Below, piece after piece: positions 1 to 31,531 of a stretch of 38,891 nt of DNA. Source of the stretch: a virus (lineage: Duplodnaviria > Heunggongvirae > Uroviricota > Caudoviricetes); the IMG/VR virus record IMGVR_UViG_2576861092_000011, positions 1 through 38,891 of that record. One strand, given 5' to 3'. Positions within the stretch are counted from its first letter, which is position 1, and every line of letters starts with the position of its first letter. A model generated the notes under the pieces. It was not told the DNA's origin, ran no database searches, and was given only the letters and a program-made list of their open reading frames with translations. Made by a program: the position numbers and the translations under genes.

Positions 1-1158
1 ATGCTCACCGTTAAGCAGATTGAAGCAGCTAAGCCGAAAGAAAAACCATACCGCCTTCTCGATGGTAATGGCCTGTACCTTTATGTCCCTGTATCCGGGA
101 AAAAGGTATGGCAGCTTCGCTACAAGATTGACGGTAAGGAGAAAATCCTGACCGTCGGAAAATATCCGCTTATGACTTTGCAGGAAGCAAGGGATAAAGC
201 ATGGACCGCGAGGAAAGACATCTCGGTTGGCATCGATCCGGTAAAGGCGAAAAAGGCTTCGTCTAACAACAATTCATTTAGTGCGATTTACAAGGAATGG
301 TACGAGCACAAGAAGCAAGTCTGGTCAGTAGGCTATGCAACTGAACTTGCAAAAATGTTTGATGCCGACATTTTACCTATCATCGGCGGCCTTGAAATTC
401 AGGATATTGAGCCGATGCAACTGCTGGAAGTAATCCGCAGATTTGAAGATCGCGGTGCAATGGAGCGAGCCAACAAAGCCCGCAGAAGATGCGGCGAGGT
501 TTTCCGTTACGCTATTGTCACTGGTAGGGCTAAATATAACCCGGCACCTGACCTTGCTGACGCCATGAAGGGATACCGCAAGAAGAACTTCCCGTTTTTA
601 CCTGCCGACCAGATCTCGGCATTCAACAAAGCACTTGCAACATTTTCAGGAAGTATCGTATCGCTCATTGCCACCAAGGTTTTACGCTACACTGCCCTAA
701 GAACGAAAGAGCTTCGTTCCATGCTATGGAAGAACGTCGATTTTGAAAACAGGATTATCACCATCGACGCCAGTGTGATGAAGGGACGCAAAATTCATGT
801 GGTCCCGATGTCAGACCAGGTGGTTGAACTTCTCACTACGCTAAGCTCAATCACCAAACCAGTCTCAGAGTTTGTTTTTGCCGGGCGCAACGATAAGAAG
901 AAGCCAATCTGCGAGAACGCGGTATTGCTTGTGATCAAACAAATCGGCTATGAAGGTCTGGAAAGCGGTCACGGATTCAGGCATGAATTCAGCACGATTA
1001 TGAACGAGCACGAATGGCCTGCCGACGCCATTGAAGTGCAACTGGCACATGCCAACGGCGGTTCTGTACGTGGAATTTACAACCATGCTCAGTATCTCGA
1101 TAAGCGCAGAGAAATGATGCAGTGGTGGGCGGACTGGCTTGATGAAAAGGGGGAGTAA
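1..1158 (+). CDS. intS: P4-type tyrosine integrase (prophage integrase), 385 aa
   Basis: Full-length ORF. N-terminus MLTVKQIEAAKPKEKPYRLLDGNGLYLYV is typical of P4-family integrases; C-terminal HGFRHEF and IYNHAQY carry the catalytic H-x-x-R and Tyr. Matches my recollection of E. coli K-12 KplE1 IntS. Window begins at its ATG. Confidence 0.9.
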   Translation: MLTVKQIEAAKPKEKPYRLLDGNGLYLYVPVSGKKVWQLRYKIDGKEKILTVGKYPLMTLQEARDKAWTARKDISVGIDPVKAKKASSNNNSFSAIYKEWYEHKKQVWSVGYATELAKMFDADILPIIGGLEIQDIEPMQLLEVIRRFEDRGAMERANKARRRCGEVFRYAIVTGRAKYNPAPDLADAMKGYRKKNFPFLPADQISAFNKALATFSGSIVSLIATKVLRYTALRTKELRSMLWKNVDFENRIITIDASVMKGRKIHVVPMSDQVVELLTTLSSITKPVSEFVFAGRNDKKKPICENAVLLVIKQIGYEGLESGHGFRHEFSTIMNEHEWPADAIEVQLAHANGGSVRGIYNHAQYLDKRREMMQWWADWLDEKGE

Positions 1159-1348
1159 TTGGCATAGCCACACTGGAAACAAAAGAAGTTAATCTCTCAA
1201 AATACCAAATGATCAAGTTATATGATAACAGGCGTGAAAATATACATAGAATGACAGTCAACCGCTAGATAACATCTAGTTAGTCTATATAGATAATATC
1301 AACTAAATCTGATAGACTCCCGCTTCCCGTAGAATATGGATTTTTAGC
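1159..1348 (+). promoter_or_regulatory. AT-rich int-oac intergenic region, putative oac promoter, with short palindromes (CTAGATaacATCTAG, TCTATATAGA)
   Basis: 190 bp non-coding AT-rich stretch directly upstream of oac start; palindromes read directly from the sequence. No promoter elements assigned. Confidence 0.3.
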
Positions 1349-2416
1349 ATGAAACATATACAATCTTTAGATGGTGTGAGAGGTATTGCGGTGCTCATTG
1401 TAATGCTTTTTCATGCCAAAGTTTCAGGATTTTCTCTTGGTTGGTCTGGAGTTCCGCTGTTCTTTTGCTTATCTGGTTTCTTAATTACCTCAATCCTTAT
1501 CGAGGATAAAGACTCTGGTTTTAGTAACTATATTAAACGATTTCTTATAAATAGATCGCTTAGAATATTCCCGTTATTTTATGCTTACCTACTTGTTAAC
1601 TTTATTCTTCTAATTGCAACTGGGAAACCAACGGATGGTTATTTGTGGTTTATAACTTATCTACAAAACTATTATATAGGAATAAATGTTACAACACCTG
1701 GAATTTTGGGGCACACCTGGTCTCTTGCAGTGGAAGAACAATTTTACTGGCTTTGGCCTCTATTCATATTTTTCATAAACAAAAAGAATATGAATCTGAT
1801 TTTTATCATACTAATAATAACATCAAGTATATCAAGATATTTTATATTTCAAATCACTGATGGAAACCCATACATTGTAAATGTAACTCTTATCAGTTGC
1901 ATTGACATGTTAGTTCTTGGTGCTCTGTTTTCAAAGATAAAAGATGATAAGTACGCATATGAATCAGGATTTTTAACTTTTATAGCAGGTGTTGGGCTGG
2001 TTCTTAATGGAATAAATTCTGTTGGTCTTAATGCTTTTTGGAACCCTGTAGATTGGGCTGGGAAATGCTGGTATATGTTTACAGCGTTTGGGATGATTTT
2101 TTCATCTGCAATTTTTTTCATTTACAAGTGGAGTGTGCTAGGGAAAAAACAAATAATAACAAAAGCATTATCATTAAAGCCATTAACATTTACAGGAAAG
2201 ATAAGTTATGGTTTGTATATGTGGCATTTGCTGTGTTTTTCAATTGCAAACAAAATGTCCTCCTTGTTTGGGGTAAACAATAATGCTGTGATAATAGCAT
2301 GTGGGTTTGCTATCGCATATATAGTATCAATTGCATCATACTATCTTTTTGAAATACATTTTCTTAAATTAAAAAGAAAAACCAATAGAAATGAAGACAA
2401 TTTAGTTACAGTATAA
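1349..2416 (+). CDS. oac: Acyltransferase-3 family integral membrane protein, probable O-antigen O-acetyltransferase (lysogenic conversion)
   Basis: 355 aa, multi-pass hydrophobic; N-terminal motif LDGVRGIAVLIVMLFH typical of OafA/Oac acyltransferases. Markedly AT-rich versus flanking phage DNA. Sits between int and tailspike as in Sf6. Confidence 0.8.
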   Translation: MKHIQSLDGVRGIAVLIVMLFHAKVSGFSLGWSGVPLFFCLSGFLITSILIEDKDSGFSNYIKRFLINRSLRIFPLFYAYLLVNFILLIATGKPTDGYLWFITYLQNYYIGINVTTPGILGHTWSLAVEEQFYWLWPLFIFFINKKNMNLIFIILIITSSISRYFIFQITDGNPYIVNVTLISCIDMLVLGALFSKIKDDKYAYESGFLTFIAGVGLVLNGINSVGLNAFWNPVDWAGKCWYMFTAFGMIFSSAIFFIYKWSVLGKKQIITKALSLKPLTFTGKISYGLYMWHLLCFSIANKMSSLFGVNNNAVIIACGFAIAYIVSIASYYLFEIHFLKLKRKTNRNEDNLVTV

Positions 2417-2447
2417 AAATAGGGCGGGGAAACCGCCCTATTTTTAT
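2416..2447. terminator. Bidirectional Rho-independent terminator between convergent oac and tailspike
   Basis: Stem AGGGCGG / CCGCCCT with loop GGAAA, flanked by an A-run on one side and a T-run on the other (aaaat-agggcggggaaaccgcccta-tttttat). Confidence 0.75.
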
Positions 2448-4159
2448 CTATCCTCTCTCCACGCCTGCACGAAACATGTAACATTGATGTTTGATACTCC
2501 ATTTCCTGTGGTTGTATCATACACTCGAGCAATGGCAGTTCCACTGCTATGGTAAGTGTCAAAGCTCACTGCGTACTTGAATGGTGATGGCATAGTATTG
2601 GAGTGAAAATCTGGAACCGCCATTGCATATCTTGCATAGAATCCAAAGTTAATTATGTCTCCAGATTTTAAAGTAAGAATGTTTGTATAGTTAGGGGAGT
2701 TTGATATCTTCTCGTCAACACGTATTAGCCTCCCATTACCTTGGATAGTAATTACTGTGAATATTCGATTTGGATCATTGAGATAAACAACAGCTTCATC
2801 ACTGATAATTAGGTGACCTATTGTGCCATCGTCGTTGTAGATTTGAGGGTCGTTTATACGTACTACAGCGTTACCCCTAACCCGGAACAGGTAGGCATTT
2901 GCCCCTGCAGCGTTAACCCTGTTGAATGTCGGGGAGTTAAATGTAACCTCAGAACTAGAGGCGACCACGATAGCCTGGCTTCCTGCTGTAATTTTCCCGT
3001 TTGCAACGTCCATTTCGAAGTTAGGTTGATTAAATATGATTCCTCTTGAGTTCGTATCTATCTGCAGGAAATAAGCATTGGCGGACCCGTTATGTCCCAT
3101 GTTAAGCGCGTTGAATATCTGGTTGCTAGCGCCAGAAACTTTCACGGCATAAGCCGTCCAGTTTGCAACATAACACCCATTGAACACGTTTTGAATAATT
3201 GTTCCGTTACTGGATAGGTTAATCCCGATTCGGTTGTTATTGCACCTCATATTGTTATAAATATTTGAAAAATCAGCATATCCAGCGTTGTAACCAATAT
3301 CAAAGAAATCGAGATAAAGGTTGTTAAACTCACAGTTAACTGCCTTTCCGCAAAAAGACATGTCTATTCCGACCCCGCTACCAACAGGAGGACCGCCAGC
3401 AACAGATCCGTTAACTTGGAGATTCATGTTTGATATAGTAATCCCTCTAACGTCAGAGCCCTCAGGCTTTATTCCGATCGTGTTTATAGGAACGTTAACA
3501 ACTGTTGATGTTATGGATTCACCAGTTATGCTAGTTTTATTTTTTAACTCAAAATTACCGCTCCATACTCCATTAGGCACCTTCAGTAGACCATTGGCCT
3601 CACCTGTGGCAACGGCAATGTTGACAGGGTTTACGTTTTCATTTGTCGCCCCGTAACCACGGATATCACCAATTCTCTGATAGTCATCAACAGATATAAA
3701 ATCATGCACTGTCCTTCCATCGGTAATGCCAACCATGGAAGAACCTATTGATGATGCAAGACGCTGCTCAAGCTGATCCGGGTCGTACTTCAGTACATTC
3801 GGAAAATAAAACTGCTGCGCACCGTACGCATCATAAACAGCCATAGAATGGCCTTGCACGGTAACGAATTTGGCAATCTGTCCATTATATACAGGGTAAC
3901 CAGCAGCGTTAATGATGATTGGTTGCGAAACAGGAACGTGAGAGCCGTCTTCGCTCTCCATATAAACCTGAATCTGGTTTTCAGGATTTACCGGATCAGT
4001 GTCAATTTTTCCTATATAAATTTTGCCATTGGCAACCGCTTTAAAAGAACGTGCCATAGTGAAGAGTTGCGAAGGCATGCTTACCACAACATTTGCAGTG
4101 ATATCTGACATTTCATTGCTCCAGACGAATGATATGATGCAACCATGATGTGATTGCAT
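2444..4159 (-). CDS. Tailspike protein: P22 gp9-like N-terminal head-binding domain plus distinct beta-helix receptor-binding/O-antigen-depolymerase domain
   Basis: N-terminal ~110 aa ([46 protein letters not shown]...[15 protein letters not shown]...NVLKYDPDQ) closely matches the P22 gp9 head-binding domain; the rest is Asn/Gly/Ser-rich repetitive sequence typical of right-handed beta-helix. 3' part is AT-rich. Confidence 0.9.
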
Positions 4160-4232
4160 ACCAAAATGGTACTATTGAGTATTTATCCAGTAGGTTACGA
4201 TGCCATTCCACCCAACTGGTGAGGCATCAAGG

Positions 4233-4628
4233 ATGTACAGCAAATACGACGAGGCGCAGTTTCACTTGAGACTTCCGCATGAACTCCACGCGAAAATTAA
4301 ACAGCGCGCGAAGATGAATAAGAGGTAGCTGAACTCAGAGATAATTGCAGCGATTAAAGAATCATTGGCTAAACAAAGCTCTGCATCAGTTTACATTGAC
4401 GATGCAGAGCGTATGGCAGAACAACAATATGATATGGTTAAGAAATTGTCTTTGATACGCTCAAGGAGCTATATAAAAAAGACAGCAGCTAACCATCAGT
4501 TACGGAGGATTTATGCAAAGAGATATGCTGAATATTGCGTTCTACATATTTGGTTTTTGCACGTTCCTGGTGTTTGCGAAGCTATTCTGACAACGCATCA
4601 GACTTGGCACCCTGAGTCATGGCGTTAA
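4233..4628 (+). pseudogene. mnt: mnt-like ribbon-helix-helix repressor gene interrupted by in-frame amber codon (TAG at 4326..4328)
   Basis: From ATG 4233: MYSKYDEAQFHLRLPHELHAKIKQRAKMNKR-TAG-LNSEIIAAIKESLAKQSSASVYIDDAERMAEQQYDMVKK aligns with P22 Mnt (..PHFNFRMPMEVREKLKFRAEANGRSMNSELLQIV..NDAERLADEQSELVKK) in one frame; the stop replaces the conserved Ser. C-terminal reading extends into the 3' end of the ejection gene on the other strand. Confidence 0.55.
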
Positions 4629-6579
4629 TGGCCTTTTGCGCCTGCTGCATCGCTTTCTCAAACGCTGTTGATCCGCGTGGGGTGTTTGCCAGTCGGAGCA
4701 TTGCATTTCTGAATGGTTCGCTCTCATAGGCGCGAGTAAGAAGTCCGTAGCTTACTGCTGCGCCAGTTGTCGCCGGGTTCATTGCTGTCCCATATCCGAT
4801 AATGAACGGGATGGTTTGCTGCCCTGTTGGTGTTGTTACTGCCGCTTTTGCAGCCTGCTGCGTGGATTGCAGGTAGTTTTTCAATCCTTTCAGATAAGCA
4901 GCGTCCTGCCCCTTAAATGTGATGCCAGTCTGGTTTTGCAGGATGTTAAGCTGCCGAAGGAACTGGTCAGGGGATCCGCCAGATTTCTCCATCGCCTTTC
5001 CAATGATGCCATTGCGCATTTGCGCCCTGCCAACACGACCAACTGAGTTATACAGCGTCTTAATTTCCGATTTGTTCTTGCTGAATAGCATGTTGTTGAC
5101 AACTTCCGGCGTCAGGTCGCCTTTCATGAGAACATTCTTCAGCCTGGTATTCTTTAGTTTCGCCGCTTCGTCAGCGTAGACGGCATTGGCTTGCTGATAT
5201 TTACGGAGAGTATCGTTGCCAAGATTCTGACCAATGGCACCATTGATATCGTCAGTCATTGCCTTGTAAACGCGCTGAATGGCAGCATCGGAACGGTTTG
5301 GTAACACTGGTCGCTCACCCTTCACGTCCATTCTGAACTGGCTGCGCAGGTCGCTTAATTGCTTCAAATCCAGATTTACAGGACCATCAGGGCCAGCATT
5401 GCGAACAAGCTCATCACGATATGACTGAAGTTTTGAAATAGTCTCGTTATCAGCAACCTTACCAAGCTTCTGCAGGTTAGATATTTCTGTATCAATCTGC
5501 TGAATTGCTCGCGCAGGCTGAATGTTTACTCCAGCCATAGCATTCTGAACCTGTTCCAGTCGATTACCGGCGGCACGACGAATTCCTGATGTTTTCGCTT
5601 TAAGGCTGTCAATAACAACCGCTGGATCATACTCACCGAATTTATCAGCAAATCTCTGCACCAACTGGCTTCTCGCTTCCTGTTGCGTTGCTCTCATTCC
5701 GCTTGTGCCAGCCAGAGGGATATTTTCTGCTGTAGTCTGCGCCATTTTCCCGACGCGGGAGGTTGGTTGTAACAGGTCTGTGGTGTGCAGAGGAACTCCT
5801 TCACGCTCTGCAAATCTGATAGCCTGCTGCGCTTCTGGCGCGATAGCACCACGAACGCCACGATAAGTAGCACCTAATCCACGTCCGGCAGCGTTAATAG
5901 CACCGCCAGCAAGTACACCAACTCCTAAATCGGTGGCGAGTGCTTCCGCATCATCTTTCGCACTATTTGCAGCAAGTGATCCAACTGCGTTTTCTGCTAG
6001 AAGGCGAGTTGCCCCCTGAGCAATTCGACCAGCAAGTGTTGGTGCCTGTGCTGCCGCTCTCTCAACGCCAGCAGGAGTGAGGTAAGGCAATGCTTCAGCA
6101 AATACCCTTCCCTCTGTCGTTTGTGGAGTCAGCGCTCCTTGCTGAAGGCCAAAGTCCTGCTCTAATCCCTGCGTTGTTACTCGTGGCGCTGGTTGATATG
6201 TACCATCGCCAATACCGAGTTTACCGCCAGCCCATGCCGCCGCGCTTGTTACAGCATCGGCAACTGATGCAGGTATGTTTGCCACGTTCACGCCAGCCTG
6301 CACCAGTCCGCGACCAGTCTCTTTTACTGCTTCACCAAGATCAGACATAAATCCACTTTGCTGTGGTTGTTGCTGTGCTACTGGTTGTTGTGTCTCCACT
6401 GGCTGCACAGATGGCAATGGATAGGCAGCATAGAAAGCTTGCTTAGCCTGCTCTGCATTTTCTCCGGCTTGCGGGGCCACGACTTCATTGAAGTATTGCT
6501 CCTGAGCCTGCGCTTTTTGTTCTGGTGCTAACGCCTGATACTGTGGAGAGGCGATAACATCTTTCCATGCTTTAGCCAT
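4582..6579 (-). CDS. DNA ejection (pilot) protein, P22 gp16-like
   Basis: 665 aa; position immediately after gp20-like gene in the conserved P22 order 14-7-20-16; Ala/Gln-rich low-complexity composition typical of ejection proteins. Confidence 0.75.
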   Translation of the reverse strand: MAKAWKDVIASPQYQALAPEQKAQAQEQYFNEVVAPQAGENAEQAKQAFYAAYPLPSVQPVETQQPVAQQQPQQSGFMSDLGEAVKETGRGLVQAGVNVANIPASVADAVTSAAAWAGGKLGIGDGTYQPAPRVTTQGLEQDFGLQQGALTPQTTEGRVFAEALPYLTPAGVERAAAQAPTLAGRIAQGATRLLAENAVGSLAANSAKDDAEALATDLGVGVLAGGAINAAGRGLGATYRGVRGAIAPEAQQAIRFAEREGVPLHTTDLLQPTSRVGKMAQTTAENIPLAGTSGMRATQQEARSQLVQRFADKFGEYDPAVVIDSLKAKTSGIRRAAGNRLEQVQNAMAGVNIQPARAIQQIDTEISNLQKLGKVADNETISKLQSYRDELVRNAGPDGPVNLDLKQLSDLRSQFRMDVKGERPVLPNRSDAAIQRVYKAMTDDINGAIGQNLGNDTLRKYQQANAVYADEAAKLKNTRLKNVLMKGDLTPEVVNNMLFSKNKSEIKTLYNSVGRVGRAQMRNGIIGKAMEKSGGSPDQFLRQLNILQNQTGITFKGQDAAYLKGLKNYLQSTQQAAKAAVTTPTGQQTIPFIIGYGTAMNPATTGAAVSYGLLTRAYESEPFRNAMLRLANTPRGSTAFEKAMQQAQKAINAMTQGAKSDALSE

Positions 6580-27486: not shown

Positions 27487-28366
27487 CGTGTTCACCCTCA
27501 CGAACTTTCAGGTAGGTATTATCGTTAAGCAGGAAATCAAATCCCTTTTTGTGCCAGACAGTTCCGCGTTGATGGTTTGGACGCTCTTCGAACATCCATC
27601 GACAATTTTCGCCTACGTAGCTCAAATAATTTCTCCAGTCCTGCATCGTGAACCCATGCCCGTCAAGCTGGCGGGTTATCACTCCGGCTTTGCGCCAGAA
27701 CGTTCGGATCTGGTTTTTACGCTTGTCATTCAGTGCGCGGATTCTTGGCGCTTCAGGAAGGATTTCGTGGTAAGCATCGACAACATCCTGACAGCTGACG
27801 GAAGTTTTTTTCTTGTCAGACTTTTTGTCTGCTGTGGCACTCTCTAATACGTCAGTATTAGAGATATTATTTATATTATTGTTTATGGACAACCGTTGGA
27901 CAACCGTTGGACAATCTCCGCTGAGAGCCGCGACATTACTGGTGTTTGCGTTGGACAACCGTTGGACAACCGTTGGACAATTTTTTGCCTGAAAATCGTC
28001 ATATTTAACGATTGTAAACAGGCTAAATTTCTTCCCCATCGAGCAAATATTAAGCATCCCTTTCGACTCAAAAGTCCGTAATAAGCTCCGAACTTTGTTG
28101 TCGGGGATGAATGTTTCTCTGACCAGCGACGGGCGTCCAGTTATCATCTGACCGCGATCAACAGTTATCGGACCGATATCCGTATTGACGACAGTAGATT
28201 CGTGATTAGCCTTGAGGATTAAGTGAAGCCAAAGATGTACTGCCTGAGAGTCCTTATAGAGCCTGCTGTCCATAAACTGGCGGTGTATAGAGACATACCC
28301 CATACTGGATGCCTCCTGATGTTGTACAGGGTTATGCCTGTAATCAGCTAACTTAACGACGCCCAT
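27476..28366 (-). CDS. Replication initiator protein (lambda O-like) containing the origin iterons
   Basis: 296 aa downstream of cII and upstream of helicase; iteron cluster and AT-rich segment lie inside the ORF as in lambda ori. Confidence 0.8.
   Translation of the reverse strand: MGVVKLADYRHNPVQHQEASSMGYVSIHRQFMDSRLYKDSQAVHLWLHLILKANHESTVVNTDIGPITVDRGQMITGRPSLVRETFIPDNKVRSLLRTFESKGMLNICSMGKKFSLFTIVKYDDFQAKNCPTVVQRLSNANTSNVAALSGDCPTVVQRLSINNNINNISNTDVLESATADKKSDKKKTSVSCQDVVDAYHEILPEAPRIRALNDKRKNQIRTFWRKAGVITRQLDGHGFTMQDWRNYLSYVGENCRWMFEERPNHQRGTVWHKKGFDFLLNDNTYLKVREGEHDDR
27855..27981. repeat. Replication origin: two clusters of 11-bp iterons (GGACAACCGTT x2.6 each) plus adjacent AT-rich region
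   Basis: 27887..27915 and 27953..27981 each read GGACAACCGTTGGACAACCGTTGGACAAT; AT-rich tract at 27855..27886 (tattagagatattatttatattattgtttat). Confidence 0.75.
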
Positions 28367-28548
28367 GTTTCACTCCTGCTTTGGCTAGTCTGTAAACACC
28401 AACAAGGCGCTCTGCGAACGCCCTGTTATTTGCTGCGGCTACCACTAATCCCTCAGGTGAATCAGAGTGTCGAATCTCTTCTTTTTCCTGGTATTTCTTA
28501 CGACGTTTTGTCATAATTACTCCTGTGGATTGATCCAGTCTTTCTACA

Positions 28549-28827
28549 TCAGGCCTCGAAGAATTCGCCGTTCTTCGGGGCTTTTTCTTTTGTCAGCATT
28601 CTGGCTACTTTCTTAGCCAGTTCCGCCAACTCCTCGTCTTCAACACCCCATTCAAGAACAGCCAGAAGCATTCCCATTTTTGGGATGAAGCTGTCTTTCC
28701 ATCGCGAAATTTGCGATTCATTAATCCCTAACGCGTCGGCAACCTTTCGCTGGCCACGTACAGCAATTCGATTCAGGATGTTGCTTGTAATTGCATTCGC
28801 TTTCTTGCGAGTACTTGTAAGTTGCAT
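28549..28827 (-). CDS. cII: CII-like transcriptional activator (P22 c1 / lambda cII family)
   Basis: 92 aa; ..SQISRWKDSFIPKMGMLLAVLEWGVEDEELAELAKKVARMLT.. closely matches lambda CII. Confidence 0.85.
   Translation of the reverse strand: MQLTSTRKKANAITSNILNRIAVRGQRKVADALGINESQISRWKDSFIPKMGMLLAVLEWGVEDEELAELAKKVARMLTKEKAPKNGEFFEA
28553..28590 (+). terminator. Rho-independent terminator on the strand antisense to the cII 3' end (OOP-like antisense RNA terminator)
   Basis: Plus strand GCCTCGAAGAA-ttcgccg-TTCTTCGGGGC (about 11-bp stem) followed by TTTTTCTTTT, inside the 3' end of cII on the opposite strand, as for lambda oop. Confidence 0.5.
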
Positions 28828-28886
28828 ATGTAAGTATTTCCTTAACTAATAAGAAGTTATGCGCATCAACTTATGCGCGTTGTATT

Positions 28887-28929
28887 CCCGCATTTCGGCG
28901 GGAATGAGGACCATGACTGTTAAAGAGCG
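28887..28929 (-). promoter_or_regulatory. nutR: boxA (CGCTCTTTAACA) followed by boxB hairpin (CCCGCCGAAATGCGGG)
   Basis: On the minus strand downstream of cro; boxA and boxB are identical to the nutL copy upstream of N. Confidence 0.65.
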
Positions 28930-28935
28930 GTGTTA

Positions 28936-29130
28936 CTATTTGTTTTTCTTGTTGCTTGGGAAAGGACGAACTTCCTCTCCAATCACACTGCCATCAGGCT
29001 TTACCGTAACCATAATGTTACGACCTGCCAGAATGGCCTTGCTGATAGCGCACTGGATTACACCAAAGTCACTGGCTGCTTTAGCCTGTCCATGGATTTT
29101 GGCGTAATCGGCAAGTGTCATTCGAATCAT
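28936..29130 (-). CDS. cro: Cro repressor
   Basis: [62 protein letters not shown] aligns with lambda Cro; GGAGAG RBS; divergent from cI. Confidence 0.8.
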
Positions 29131-29160
29131 ATGCACTCTCCGTTATTAACCATGAACAAA

Positions 29161-29225
29161 GAATACTACAGGTATTCAAAGCAATCAATACTCAGGGTAT
29201 TTTTAGTTTAAGTACCTTAGCTATT
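29161..29225. promoter_or_regulatory. OR operator region (PR/PRM): palindromic sites AATAC-N5-GTATT
   Basis: GAATACtacagGTATTC (29161..29177) and AATACtcaggGTATT (29188..29202) are perfect dyads; a weaker third site at about 29211..29225. cI ATG has no Shine-Dalgarno, compatible with a leaderless PRM transcript. Confidence 0.55.
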
Positions 29226-29236
29226 AGAATTAAGCT

Positions 29237-29953
29237 ATGGAAAATAAAAAATCACTGACGACAGAACAGCTCGAAGACGCTAAGCGGCTTAAGGCTTTGT
29301 ATGAGTCAAAAAAGAAAGAATTGGGAATAACCCAATACTCAATCGCTGATGAACTGGGTATCACCCAAGGAGCGGTAGGGCATTATCTTAATGGCAGAAA
29401 CGCGCTAAATGTTGAGGTCGCATCTGGTTTTGCACGTTTGTTGCAAGTCTCAATTGCTGATTTTAGCCAGTCAATTGCTGCCAAGGTTGCAGAACAGGCA
29501 GAAAGCCTTAAGAGCGATGCCAACGTAAGGTATGCAGGGGAATACAGAGCAGGAAAGAGGTATCCGGTGTTAAGCAGTATCCAGGCTGGCTCGTGGTGTG
29601 AAGCATGCGAACCATACACCATTAAAGACATAGATGTTTGGCTTGAGTCTGACGCGCATATTCAAGGTAATGCGTTTTGGCTTAAAGTGGAAGGTGATTC
29701 AATGACGGCACCGGTTGGGTTAAGCATTCCAGAGGGAACATTCGTTCTTTTCGATACCGGAAGGGAGGCGATCAACGGCAGCTTGGTCATAGCAAAACTT
29801 TCTGACTCTAACGAAGCAACATTCAAGAAGCTGATAATCGACGGCGGAAATAAATACCTCAAGGGACTTAATCCTGCATGGCCTCTCGTGCCAATCAATG
29901 GAAACTGCAAGATTATAGGCGTTGCAATTGAGACAAAACTCAGACTGGTTTGA
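29237..29953 (+). CDS. cI: CI repressor (HTH plus S24 LexA-like autopeptidase domain)
   Basis: 238 aa; N-terminus similar to lambda CI (..LTTEQLEDAKRLKALYESKKKELGITQ..); C-terminal ..AFWLKVEGDSMTAP.. and ..FKKLI.. match the S24 Ser/Lys peptidase signature. Confidence 0.9.
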   Translation: MENKKSLTTEQLEDAKRLKALYESKKKELGITQYSIADELGITQGAVGHYLNGRNALNVEVASGFARLLQVSIADFSQSIAAKVAEQAESLKSDANVRYAGEYRAGKRYPVLSSIQAGSWCEACEPYTIKDIDVWLESDAHIQGNAFWLKVEGDSMTAPVGLSIPEGTFVLFDTGREAINGSLVIAKLSDSNEATFKKLIIDGGNKYLKGLNPAWPLVPINGNCKIIGVAIETKLRLV

Positions 29954-29971
29954 TCACGCAAGGGGGCGCTT

Positions 29972-30340
29972 ATGGTTGGAACCGCTATAGCAAGCTTTTT
30001 GGGGATGTTGGCAATCTCAACAATTTACGGCTTAGCGCATGCTTTTATTGCGAAATCTCTATCAGAAAAAATAAGCCAGGCTTGGGCGCATAGATCAGCT
30101 CGTTTCATGATTCTAGTTGTCATAGCAATACAAGGGATATCTGCATTTATCCTCTATGGATCAAGCTTATACCTATTGTATCAAGGCGCGACATTTACGC
30201 CTTACACCAGTGATTACGGAACTCTATACGATGGTAGTGAAGACATCACTGTGGCTTGGATCGTCTTTGGTTTATCTATGGCCGTGTCTGTTGTAGCAGA
30301 CATCATTAAGGTAATTCTCGTCTTAACCTTCGCTGACTAA
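29972..30340 (+). CDS. Small integral membrane protein co-transcribed with cI (rex/sie position); candidate superinfection-exclusion or abortive-infection factor
   Basis: 122 aa with 3-4 predicted hydrophobic helices; strong RBS AGGGGG; 18 bp after cI stop on the same strand. Confidence 0.6.
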   Translation: MVGTAIASFLGMLAISTIYGLAHAFIAKSLSEKISQAWAHRSARFMILVVIAIQGISAFILYGSSLYLLYQGATFTPYTSDYGTLYDGSEDITVAWIVFGLSMAVSVVADIIKVILVLTFAD

Positions 30341-30427
30341 CCTATAATCCCGGCAGCAATAGCTATCGGGATCCACTTCACATATCCCGCATAAAAAGCA
30401 CTGAACAAGCAGACACCGAAAAAAATA

Positions 30428-30512
30428 AATATCCTTTGTATTCATTTGCTTATCATTATTTCACCAAAAATAAATACCTTGGGTATTTACACAATAAAAT
30501 ACCTACAGTATT
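30428..30512. promoter_or_regulatory. OL operator region (PL): AATAC-N5-GTATT sites
   Basis: AATACcttggGTATT (30473..30487), AATACctacaGTATT (30498..30512), weaker AATATccttttGTATT (30428..30442); same half-sites as OR. Confidence 0.55.
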
Positions 30513-30560
30513 CTTTAGCCATCAGCAGGACGCTGGAAGCCAAACGGAACAGATTGGCAG

Positions 30561-30600
30561 GCTCTTTAACATTGATGGGATTGTCCCGCCGAAATGCGGG
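30561..30600 (+). promoter_or_regulatory. nutL: boxA (GCTCTTTAACA) and boxB hairpin (CCCGCCGAAATGCGGG)
   Basis: Upstream of N on the plus strand; same boxA/boxB as nutR. Confidence 0.65.
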
Positions 30601-30708
30601 AACCAAAGAGTAGTTGGCTTTGGGGTGACGTGAAGTGCAGCTGCACGACGGCAACCGGAAGATAAGCACCCGGCGCGTCACCGCCAAAGTCAATCATCGG
30701 AGGTCAAC

Positions 30709-31008
30709 ATGACAGTAGTCATTACATATCTGGCTGACGATAACGCCAGAAATCGCCGCAGAGCACGCAGACAGGCTCAACGTGAACAGGCAATGCAAGA
30801 ACAGCGACTGGCGCGAAAAATTGCGCTAAAGCTCTCTGGTTGCGTCAGAGCAGATAAAGCAGCATCACTCGGAAGCCTTCGCTGCAAGAAGGCAGAAGAA
30901 GTCGAGAGTAAACAGAATCGTATTTACTACCGCAAGCCACGCAGTGAAATGGGTGTGACTTGTGTTGGTCGCCAGAAAATGAAATTAGGCAGCAAACCAC
31001 TTATTTGA
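30709..31008 (+). CDS. N: N-like transcription antiterminator
   Basis: 99 aa; N-terminal arginine-rich motif (DDNARNRRRARRQAQREQA); C-terminus ..NRIYYRKPRSEMGVTCVGRQKMKLGSKPLI resembles lambda N C-terminus. Confidence 0.8.
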   Translation: MTVVITYLADDNARNRRRARRQAQREQAMQEQRLARKIALKLSGCVRADKAASLGSLRCKKAEEVESKQNRIYYRKPRSEMGVTCVGRQKMKLGSKPLI

Positions 31009-31016
31009 GGTGAGAT

Positions 31017-31175
31017 ATGAACATGAATGTATCTTTAACAAAATCATTGCTTGCCAGTCGTGGATTAAAGATGAAACCAACAAAAAGTTATAAAAACGGC
31101 AGTCGATGCTACTCAGTTTCAGGATGGAGCGGAGAGTACACAATCAAAGGTATTTTGTGGCAGTTAGGATTTTGA
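31017..31175 (+). CDS. Small hypothetical early protein (52 aa)
   Basis: Below ORF-track cutoff; ATG preceded by GAGGTGA RBS; first of three tandem small ORFs after N. Confidence 0.4.
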   Translation: MNMNVSLTKSLLASRGLKMKPTKSYKNGSRCYSVSGWSGEYTIKGILWQLGF

Positions 31176-31208
31176 TGATTCTTTTGGCAGCAAGACACAG
31201 AGGTGAAT

Positions 31209-31343
31209 ATGAACGCAGTTGAGTTTACAAAATGGATGGCAGAGCAAGATATCACAGGAGCCGACGAAAAGGCTGTGTACTACATGGCTATGCTATGGAT
31301 TCACAAAGCAAAAGAGGCTGCAAATGCTCTTGGAGGTGAGTGA
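31209..31343 (+). CDS. Small hypothetical early protein (44 aa)
   Basis: ATG preceded by identical GAGGTGA RBS; stop overlaps start of next ORF by 1 nt. Confidence 0.4.
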   Translation: MNAVEFTKWMAEQDITGADEKAVYYMAMLWIHKAKEAANALGGE

Positions 31344-31531
31344 TGAAAGTAAAAATAACTGCTTCTAATACCAGTTTTGTAAGTGTTGGTGATATTACAG
31401 AAGTAATAACAAATCATGATGGAACACAAGTTATGTGGTCTGATTTCTGTAAAAGATATGAGCGAGTTAGTTGGTGTAAACTCGTATGGGGCGTCGAATA
31501 CGAAGAATTACCTGAAATGCATGACGAATAA
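31343..31531 (+). CDS. Small hypothetical early protein (62 aa)
   Basis: ATG 31343 with GGAGGTGA RBS; translationally coupled to upstream ORF. Confidence 0.5.
   Translation: MKVKITASNTSFVSVGDITEVITNHDGTQVMWSDFCKRYERVSWCKLVWGVEYEELPEMHDE

Follow-up and report, generated by a model that had tools for sequence, protein, structure and literature searches.

The window, by which we mean the whole 38,891-nucleotide stretch of DNA that was analysed, contains a lambdoid immunity region that reads, in the leftward sense, cII (minus strand), cro, OR, cI, hkaS, OL/PL, a nutL-like region and N. The annotation of phage HK620 has the identical order cI-hkaS-OL/PL-nutL-N. Our subject, hkaS, appears in the list of open reading frames at 29972-30340 on the plus strand and encodes 122 residues. 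It lies among the following features.

28936-29136, minus strand: cro of the HK620-type immunity module, an open reading frame whose product is 97% identical to HK620 Cro; homologous loci match Pfam Cro.
29162-29201, no strand assigned: OR operators, two clear palindromes found by pattern scan (AATACTACAGGTATT at 29162 and AATACTCAGGGTATT at 29187), matching OR1-OR3 of the HK620 annotation.
29225-29230, plus strand: putative PRM-like -10 hexamer TAGAAT, 6 nt 5' of the cI ATG, from reading of the sequence.
29237-29953, plus strand: cI repressor, 238 aa, with HTH_3 and Peptidase_S24 matches, phrog_4, 99.6% identical to HK620 cI.
29960-29966, plus strand: Shine-Dalgarno sequence AAGGGGG of hkaS, inside the 18-nt cI-hkaS spacer TCACGCAAGGGGGCGCTT and 5 nt 5' of the ATG.
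29972-30340, plus strand: hkaS, encoding a predicted inner-membrane protein of 122 aa with three transmembrane helices, phrog_6534 (open reading frame, profile match, hydropathy, AlphaFold2 and conservation).
30347-30372, plus strand: stable RNA hairpin directly 3' of the hkaS stop codon (-13.7 kcal/mol, z=-3.7), with no U-tract.
30420-30446, no strand assigned: AT-rich block, labelled tIMM in HK620, containing the operator-like pattern match AATATCCTTTGTATT (30428-30442).
30473-30514, plus strand: OL operators (palindromes at 30473 and 30498) and, overlapping them, a PL-like promoter (-35 TTTACA at 30486, 17 nt, TATTCT), from pattern and promoter scans and the HK620 annotation.
30709-31008, plus strand: N antiterminator, phrog_271, first gene of the PL module and outside the cro-cI-hkaS unit.

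A preliminary description of this locus had reported a 122-aa reading frame 18 nt after cI, on the same strand and with a strong ribosome-binding site. Its coordinates proved exact: the cI stop codon TGA occupies 29951-29953 and AAGGGGG occupies 29960-29966. It had also recognised the position as that of rex, between cI and OL/PL, and we agree, as the operators at 30473 and 30498 and the PL-like promoter lie downstream, and the interval between cI and OL in lambda holds rexA-rexB.

We assigned TAGAAT as a PRM-like -10 element by its likeness to lambda PRM. Because no Shine-Dalgarno sequence could be read 5' of cI and this hexamer lies 6 nt from the ATG, the cI message is probably leaderless, like that of lambda, in which case hkaS would be the sole Shine-Dalgarno-led cistron of the PRM message. 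From the 18-nt gap, the strong Shine-Dalgarno sequence, the lack of any promoter-like site detected on the plus strand between cI and hkaS and the presence of a hairpin or terminator before OL/PL, we infer that hkaS is co-transcribed with cI; expression in lysogens, like any anti-phage activity or mechanism discussed below, is likewise putative. Since transcription from both PL and PR leads away from hkaS, it is well supported by the layout that hkaS would be expressed only from PRM and PRE, that is, in lysogens and during establishment.

The hairpin at 30347-30372 was not called as an intrinsic terminator by terminator prediction. The AT-rich block at 30420-30446 is invariant in a five-way alignment of diverged loci and was found in 91 of 98 loci; we rejected its HK620 label tIMM as an indication of an intrinsic terminator, as the block does not fold (-0.6 kcal/mol, z=0.28). 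A 40-aa open reading frame at 30323-30445 (minus strand) was likewise rejected as a gene, its frame stopping after 10 codons in the Salmonella locus despite the conserved DNA block. A scan of positions 28000-31500 against Rfam gave no matches; the svsR sRNA described in the literature concerns the 3' end of cI in another prophage (PMC12803456). The G+C content of hkaS (42.0%) is slightly below that of its neighbours (cI 45.3%, window 47.4%). Elsewhere in the same prophage, a gene for an Acyl_transf_3 acyltransferase, which we count as another conversion gene, adjoins int.

That the reading frame is a real gene is confirmed by its conservation and not by its length: about 2.3 random open stretches of at least 122 codons are expected in the window, so that length is no proof. 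The product matches phrog_6534 over its full length (E=1.7e-78), residues 1-122 aligning with profile positions 1-122, and is 97.5% identical to HkaS of phage HK620 (AAK28867). Proteins of 96-98% identity and of the same length and position are found in HK620, mEpX2, HK630, HK140 and several Stx2c/EHEC phages, and more distant homologues, all of 122 aa, are 81% (Hafnia-type), 59% (Salmonella) and 55% (Buttiauxella) identical. By sequence, then, the gene is already catalogued as hkaS of the HK620 immunity module, a point that the preliminary description had missed; this identity supplies a name and not a function, the annotation being everywhere 'unknown' or 'hypothetical'. The frame is intact in all 81 related loci, and the listed E. 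coli records give it as a CDS. Three database clusters carry 5' frameshifts (P0006, P0008 and P0009), and these hold 1-2 sequences each against 45-525 in the intact clusters. The gene is under purifying selection, with a dN/dS of 0.14-0.20 and synonymous sites that are saturated in comparison with the Salmonella homologue; non-synonymous change is about four times faster in HkaS than in cI.

Beyond its own family, HkaS has no recognisable relatives in the collections searched. An exhaustive HMM (HMMER) search of 1.84 billion protein representatives revealed no distant relatives and returned, besides a repeat artefact, a fragment and one further full-length cluster, and a word-indexed sequence search retrieved family members only. 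A 5949-aa protein (P0013) was dismissed as an outside relative, since its score is an artefact of nine repeat copies, each contributing about 7 bits against the loop motif. Phrog_6534 was the sole match in PHROGs. Pfam gave nothing above family threshold (two sub-threshold matches only), neither NCBIfam nor a sequence search of the PDB gave any match, and no family of the PADLOC-DB 2.0 defence-system models was matched at E ≤ 1. Fold searches with the predicted model were non-specific, with no match to a characterised exclusion or defence protein.

Comparison with individual exclusion proteins gave the same answer. A likeness to RexB or SieB had not been recognised by eye, and profile comparison bears this out, with hhalign probabilities of 0.3% for RexB (and no Pfam RexB match at E ≤ 1) and 0.04% for P22 SieB (no Pfam match). 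For T4 Imm, for which a Pfam family exists, no match of such a family was seen at E ≤ 1. The hhalign probability against P22 SieA, which is of type A and was the sole type compared, was 0.25%; SieA has three types, of which B and C share under 30% identity with the P22 protein (PMC10883804). Homologues of sieA, sieB, rexAB and gtrA were absent from this phage in a search of the window. In the literature searched, which leaves aside the original HK620 genome paper, we found no functional study of HkaS. The homology and structure search that the preliminary description had proposed thus located the family (hkaS, phrog_6534) but no relative of known function, and the HkaS family is an orphan of Enterobacteriaceae prophages.

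The association of hkaS with cI is strikingly regular. Among 81 loci, cI lies directly upstream in each of the 80 for which upstream DNA is available, always with tight spacing (about 17-20 nt from the end of cI to the hkaS ATG, or 20-23 nt counted from the last aligned cI codon, stop included). Of 5426 complete E. coli genomes, 146 carry this type of cI, at 147 places; both numbers are the same for hkaS, and a joint cI-hkaS query was covered in all 146. About 1 in 37 complete E. coli genomes (2.7%), from many sources, therefore carry the HK620-type immunity module. A single genome among 185,579 species representatives carries hkaS. IMG/VR contains 112 copies, the best 80 of which are 96-99% identical. 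In the database searches, the family was limited to immunity modules of Enterobacteriaceae prophages.

Diverged loci delimit the inherited unit. Relative to the window, the Salmonella and Hafnia loci have N proteins that are 19-35% identical, whereas Cro is 79-82% and cI 81-95% identical. Given that N and the genes for replication and recombination vary among loci carrying cro-cI-hkaS while Cro and cI are kept, the unit is cro-cI-hkaS, and recombination joints are found on both sides of it. Accompanying the immunity module, hkaS is found in podovirus-type, HK97-type, lambda-type and Stx phages. In Buttiauxella the pairing is kept at 60% identity for cI and 55% for HkaS, with operators of a different sequence type, and a canonical intrinsic terminator lies directly 3' of hkaS, ahead of OL/PL. 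As read from its sequence, this locus is the clearest picture of a putative cI-hkaS operon.

Other phages fill the same slot, immediately 3' of cI, in different ways.

P22, HK629, VSe13 and mEp213: empty.
Klebsiella phage KPP5665-2: empty.
mEp332 and phi458: a protein of about 345 aa with one transmembrane segment.
Stx phage Lyz12581Vzw: a methyltransferase.
epsilon34: two small open reading frames (gp45 and gp44).
lambda: rexAB.
BTP1: bstA (from the literature).

The content of the slot in the sampled phages is heterogeneous, ranging from nothing to soluble proteins, a methyltransferase and single-transmembrane proteins. The closest cI outside the family, that of Serratia phage OS31 (71% identical), has no open reading frame in this position. 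Because the slot is empty in OS31 and with several other cI types, comparison of the loci indicates that hkaS is dispensable cargo and not part of the genetic switch. Mosaic diversity is known to be concentrated in the cI-N interval, a hotspot (PMC8585504), and hkaS has the character of its cargo, namely variable content between cI and OL/PL that is co-directional with cI. The two characterised cargos of the slot, lambda rexAB and BTP1 bstA, are both anti-phage (PMC8585504) and share synteny, presumably exploiting the strong repressor promoter (PMC8585504; PMC5322425). The preliminary description had stated that proteins encoded here are typically superinfection-exclusion or abortive-infection factors. 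Indeed, rexAB and bstA agree with this; the heterogeneity of the sampled slots does not, and we regard the statement as a reasonable prior and not as a rule.

Hydropathy predicts three transmembrane segments in HkaS, at approximately residues 2-27, 45-70 and 93-121. An AlphaFold2 model built on a six-sequence alignment (mean pLDDT 91.4) has helices at 2-29, 31-38, 41-74 and 89-121, with a small beta-hairpin near residues 78-86. The predicted segments, all on the plus strand, are as follows.

29975-30052, plus strand: first transmembrane segment (residues 2-27; hydropathy, AlphaFold2), the most variable, with one helical face kept and 9 of 27 positions invariant.
30053-30103, plus strand: predicted cytoplasmic loop (residues 28-44; hydropathy, AlphaFold2) with K28, K33, R41 and R44 and a short helix at 31-38.
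30104-30181, plus strand: second transmembrane segment (residues 45-70; hydropathy, AlphaFold2, alignment), with the invariant Q54 in mid-membrane.
30182-30247, plus strand: predicted periplasmic loop (residues 71-92), QGATFTPYTSDYGTLYDGSEDI, an acidic, Tyr-rich beta-hairpin with AlphaFold2 strands at approximately 78-86.
30248-30334, plus strand: third transmembrane segment (residues 93-121; hydropathy, AlphaFold2, alignment), in which D110 and K113 are invariant and the C-terminal ILVLTFAD is nearly so.

The lysine and arginine residues outside the helices are all in the first loop (K28, K33, R41 and R44), and the second loop, on the other side, holds all four acidic residues (D81, D87, E90 and D91). 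By the positive-inside rule, which is established knowledge, the 4:0 distribution of Lys/Arg favours an N-out/C-in orientation, and HkaS is thus predicted to have a periplasmic N-terminus and a cytoplasmic C-terminus. The preliminary description had envisaged three to four hydrophobic helices and had suggested a topology prediction; a polytopic membrane protein is indeed what is predicted, with three helices, not four, and an N-out/C-in topology by both hydropathy and AlphaFold2. In the model, the 17-residue loop is exposed to the cytoplasm, the chain ending in LVLTFAD right after the third helix with no tail, and the hairpin QGATFTPYTSDYGTLYDGSED is exposed to the periplasm.

Conservation peaks in the periplasmic hairpin and in the C-terminal half of the third helix (DIxKxILVLTFAD) and is lowest in the first helix. 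Twelve of the 22 positions of the periplasmic loop are invariant in members down to 55% identity, and three polar residues within helices, Q54, D110 and K113, are invariant. Substitutions among 84 E. coli-type copies (those of 83 loci and of the window) are conservative; in the hairpin loop they affect a single position out of 22, and we saw no sign of diversifying selection there.

From these observations, we tentatively propose, at somewhat less than an even chance, that HkaS is a lysogen-expressed exclusion factor at the inner membrane, most likely one that blocks genome entry. As inferred from the layout, hkaS would be transcribed with cI from PRM, and additionally from PRE during establishment, and translated from its own strong ribosome-binding site. 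In the inner membrane the product would form a bundle of three helices, with its N-terminus in the periplasm and its C-terminus in the cytoplasm, and would protect the lysogen, and hence the prophage, from other phages at the cytoplasmic membrane. Its periplasmic hairpin and helix surfaces might make contact with the ejection or tape-measure proteins with which the incoming phage forms a channel or, alternatively, HkaS might occupy an inner-membrane host protein that those proteins need.

We favour a block of entry because the predicted protein has almost no cytoplasmic part with which to sense infection and no partner gene, and because its best-conserved exposed element would face the periplasm, where ejection and tape-measure proteins meet the inner membrane. 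The precedents of P22 SieA, and also of DicB, speak for it, and T4 Imm and HK97 gp15 act likewise, by interfering with genome entry. SieA of P22, an inner-membrane protein of 162-164 aa with three predicted transmembrane helices, blocks DNA injection alone, and escape from it involves changes in the ejection proteins gp16 and gp20 (PMC10883804); DicB, a prophage protein acting through the host, blocks inner-membrane receptor proteins (PMC6832061). We also count for an exclusion role that this phage has no homologue of sieA, sieB, rexAB or gtrA.

Several observations weigh against a block of entry. The entry blockers cited are mostly encoded outside the immunity module (P22 sieA adjoins the ejection-protein genes), whereas hkaS travels with the immunity module and not with the virion module; both characterised cargos of the slot work by abortive infection; and the periplasmic loop has no sign of diversifying selection. 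Against an exclusion role in general, HkaS has no sequence or fold relation to any exclusion or defence protein.

A more specific version of this proposal, which we consider possible but doubtful, is that HkaS represents a new family of membrane immunity proteins that work alone, have no sensor and would recognise incoming ejection or tape-measure proteins within the bilayer. Such recognition can be likened to that of the toxin by the immunity proteins of pore-forming colicins. If true, approximately 2.7% of E. coli, including Stx-phage lysogens, would be protected against a defined set of phages by a mechanism that is invisible to any homology or fold search.

The slot itself raises a serious rival, unlikely though we consider it, because it is common to the abortive-infection systems rexAB and bstA (PMC8585504): latent HkaS might oligomerise upon infection by another phage and, as a pore or ion leak, abolish the membrane potential and abort the growth of that phage, in the manner of RexB without RexA, of SieB, or of a holin set off by the transient depolarisation during injection. 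The predicted architecture (three transmembrane helices, N-out/C-in, 122 aa) is that of a class I holin, for example S105 of lambda, the invariant Q54, D110 and K113 place polar or charged residues inside helices, and linkage to the immunity module and not to the virion module is as expected for defence against unrelated phages. Yet HkaS has neither a RexA-like partner nor a cytoplasmic domain to sense infection, is unlike RexB or SieB in sequence, and lacks the charged C-terminal tail of a holin, and its gene lies outside the lysis cassette. Moreover, a constitutive pore former expressed from the strongest lysogenic promoter needs a safeguard, and none was seen.

Immunity proteins of pore-forming colicins are inner-membrane proteins of about 110-180 aa with three to four transmembrane helices, and the architecture of HkaS resembles that of the E1/Ia type. 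This likeness suggests a lysogenic-conversion factor that is not aimed at phages at all: HkaS could provide immunity to a membrane-active toxin or modulate a host transporter, the envelope stress response or a colonisation trait. Such a role, which we judge rather improbable, is in keeping with the Acyl_transf_3 acyltransferase as another conversion gene in the same prophage, with the occurrence of the module in complete E. coli genomes of many origins (2.7% of them), and with the history of bstA, which was first described through virulence phenotypes (PMC5322425). It fits poorly with the lack of homology to immunity or transporter-regulator families in Pfam and NCBIfam, with the lack of a toxin gene linked in the module and with the restriction of the family to prophage immunity modules.

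The unbroken 1:1 linkage to one cI lineage (147 places in E. coli, 80 viral loci) could also be read to mean that HkaS serves the cycle of its own phage, tuning induction, lysis timing or re-infection of the siblings of the lysogen. RexAB is reported to assist the lysogenic-to-lytic switch (bioRxiv 10.1101/2021.04.19.439022). We find this explanation distinctly improbable: related repressors (Serratia OS31, at 71%; mEp213; the P22 type) manage without hkaS, the predicted protein offers hardly any cytoplasmic surface for contact with CI, Cro or DNA, and linkage is to be expected regardless, since recombination joints flank the module. Finally, a chance or decaying reading frame, to which the roughly 2.3 random frames expected in the window and the few frameshifted entries might point, is hardly credible in view of the low dN/dS with saturated synonymous sites, the intact frame in 81 of 81 loci and its annotation as a CDS in E. 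coli, the strong Shine-Dalgarno sequence, the confident AlphaFold2 model and the small size of the frameshifted clusters.

Should HkaS exclude phages, as we tentatively propose, an orphan single-gene membrane system would join RexAB and BstA in a repressor-linked defence hotspot and would partly explain the resistance of about 1 in 37 E. coli genomes, including EHEC lysogens of Stx2c phages, with a bearing on phage typing and on host range in phage therapy. Its three helices and 20-residue periplasmic hairpin would then make it a tractable model of how a membrane protein arrests genome entry. Should it have no phage phenotype, hkaS would be another conserved prophage gene lacking an assigned role. 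Its merits are its small size, its frequency in E. coli and the ease of testing it.

Among known systems, lambda RexB shares with HkaS the slot and strand relative to cI, a polytopic inner-membrane character and a similar size (RexB has 144 aa), and it is co-transcribed with cI in lysogens, as we deduce for HkaS. RexB differs in having four hydrophobic segments in the same hydropathy scan that gives three for HkaS, and in needing RexA, whereas HkaS has no partner (the cI-hkaS gap is 18 nt, and the window encodes no RexA homologue). P22 SieA corresponds to the predicted HkaS as a stand-alone, prophage-expressed inner-membrane protein with three predicted transmembrane helices and small extramembrane parts (PMC10883804). 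Unlike HkaS, it is 162-164 aa long and is encoded beside the ejection-protein genes under its own promoter; furthermore, its specificity is for P22-like phages, whereas hkaS spreads with the immunity module across virion types. SieB is different again in that sieB lies in the PL operon with its own promoter, hkaS being upstream of PL.

Class I holins of the lambda S105 type are proteins of about 100-130 aa with three transmembrane helices and an N-out/C-in topology, all of which are predicted for HkaS as well. In contrast to HkaS, they carry a charged cytoplasmic C-terminal tail and are expressed late, from a gene that precedes the endolysin in the late operon, and no Pfam holin family matched HkaS. 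The genetic arrangement of BstA in BTP1 is similar to that of HkaS, the gene lying directly 3' of cI in a P22-like prophage with conserved architecture, and BstA is highly expressed in lysogeny (PMC5322425, PMC8585504). BstA, however, is described as localising to sites of phage DNA replication and as acting by abortive infection with a DNA-based self-immunity element, whereas HkaS is predicted to be a small integral membrane protein. Placed beside these systems, hkaS is a sequence-orphan example of repressor-linked prophage cargo, and a sensible candidate exclusion factor more than a surprise.

The start of cI (window 29225-29237) has no Shine-Dalgarno sequence, and a -10 hexamer, TAGAAT, ends 6 nt upstream of its ATG; together these suggest that the cI mRNA is leaderless, as it is in lambda. 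If so, translation of hkaS, the gene for a predicted three-TM inner-membrane protein that begins 18 nt after the cI stop codon, would far exceed translation of cI from the message that the two share. Directly 3' of the hkaS stop codon lies a stable hairpin (window 30347-30372; -13.7 kcal/mol, z=-3.7) that lacks a U-tract; at the equivalent place, the Buttiauxella homologue is followed by a canonical terminator (L018 2890-2918).

Two further features lie between hkaS and OL/PL or overlap the end of the gene:
30420-30446: AT-rich block AAAAAATAAATATCCTTTGTATTCAT, annotated in HK620 as the terminator tIMM
30323-30445, minus strand: 40-aa hydrophobic ORF, convergent with hkaS and overlapping its end

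The AT-rich block is unchanged in the E. coli, Salmonella and Hafnia loci despite diverged flanks. Folding of the block gave no stable structure (-0.6 kcal/mol, z=0.28), and AATATCCTTTGTATT within it matches the operator pattern, the next operator lying 45 bp downstream. The Buttiauxella locus is without the block, and its operators differ. The block may be a distal CI site, not a terminator. The minus-strand ORF is probably not a gene, because in the Salmonella locus a stop codon interrupts its reading frame after 10 codons.

Among the database matches to HkaS, P0006, P0008 and P0009 begin in an overlapping +1 ORF (MITQGGAYGWNRY...; window 29950-30093) and then enter the hkaS frame; these clusters, of 1-2 sequences each, represent either sequencing errors or rare alleles that carry a frameshift. 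P0013, a giant metagenomic repeat protein of 5949 aa, contains nine copies of SATFQTYSSGYTTLY...W, which is similar to the motif of the HkaS periplasmic hairpin. As each copy scores only ~7 bits, we judged the match to be a repeat-summing artefact, and we record the common motif as a curiosity.

Elsewhere, the interval between cI and OL/PL holds other cargo:
L015 2325-3362 (mEp332) and L102 2213-3259 (phi458): ~345-aa protein
L104 2118-2886 (epsilon34): two small ORFs, gp45 and gp44

A single TM segment lies in the middle of the ~345-aa protein, which matches no Pfam family; its gene lies 22-25 nt downstream of a cI type other than that of the window. Stx2a phages carry repressors related to this cI type. 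The gp45 and gp44 ORFs are directly downstream of the epsilon34 repressor, and gp44 has a C-terminal TM anchor.

A second lysogenic-conversion locus of the hkaS-bearing prophage is found at window 1-4159, where three genes are clustered:
1-1158: integrase
1349-2416: Acyl_transf_3 acyltransferase, 355 aa, multi-pass
2444-4159, minus strand: tailspike

The acyltransferase gene probably serves in lysogenic conversion by modifying the O antigen. In the interval that separates the tailspike from the gp16-like ejection protein (window 4160-4630), the sole ORF, of 87 aa, resembles Mnt weakly (E=9.5e-4), a match that falls short of the Pfam cut-off. This interval contains no sieA homologue, whereas in P22 the equivalent interval is occupied by sieA and immI.
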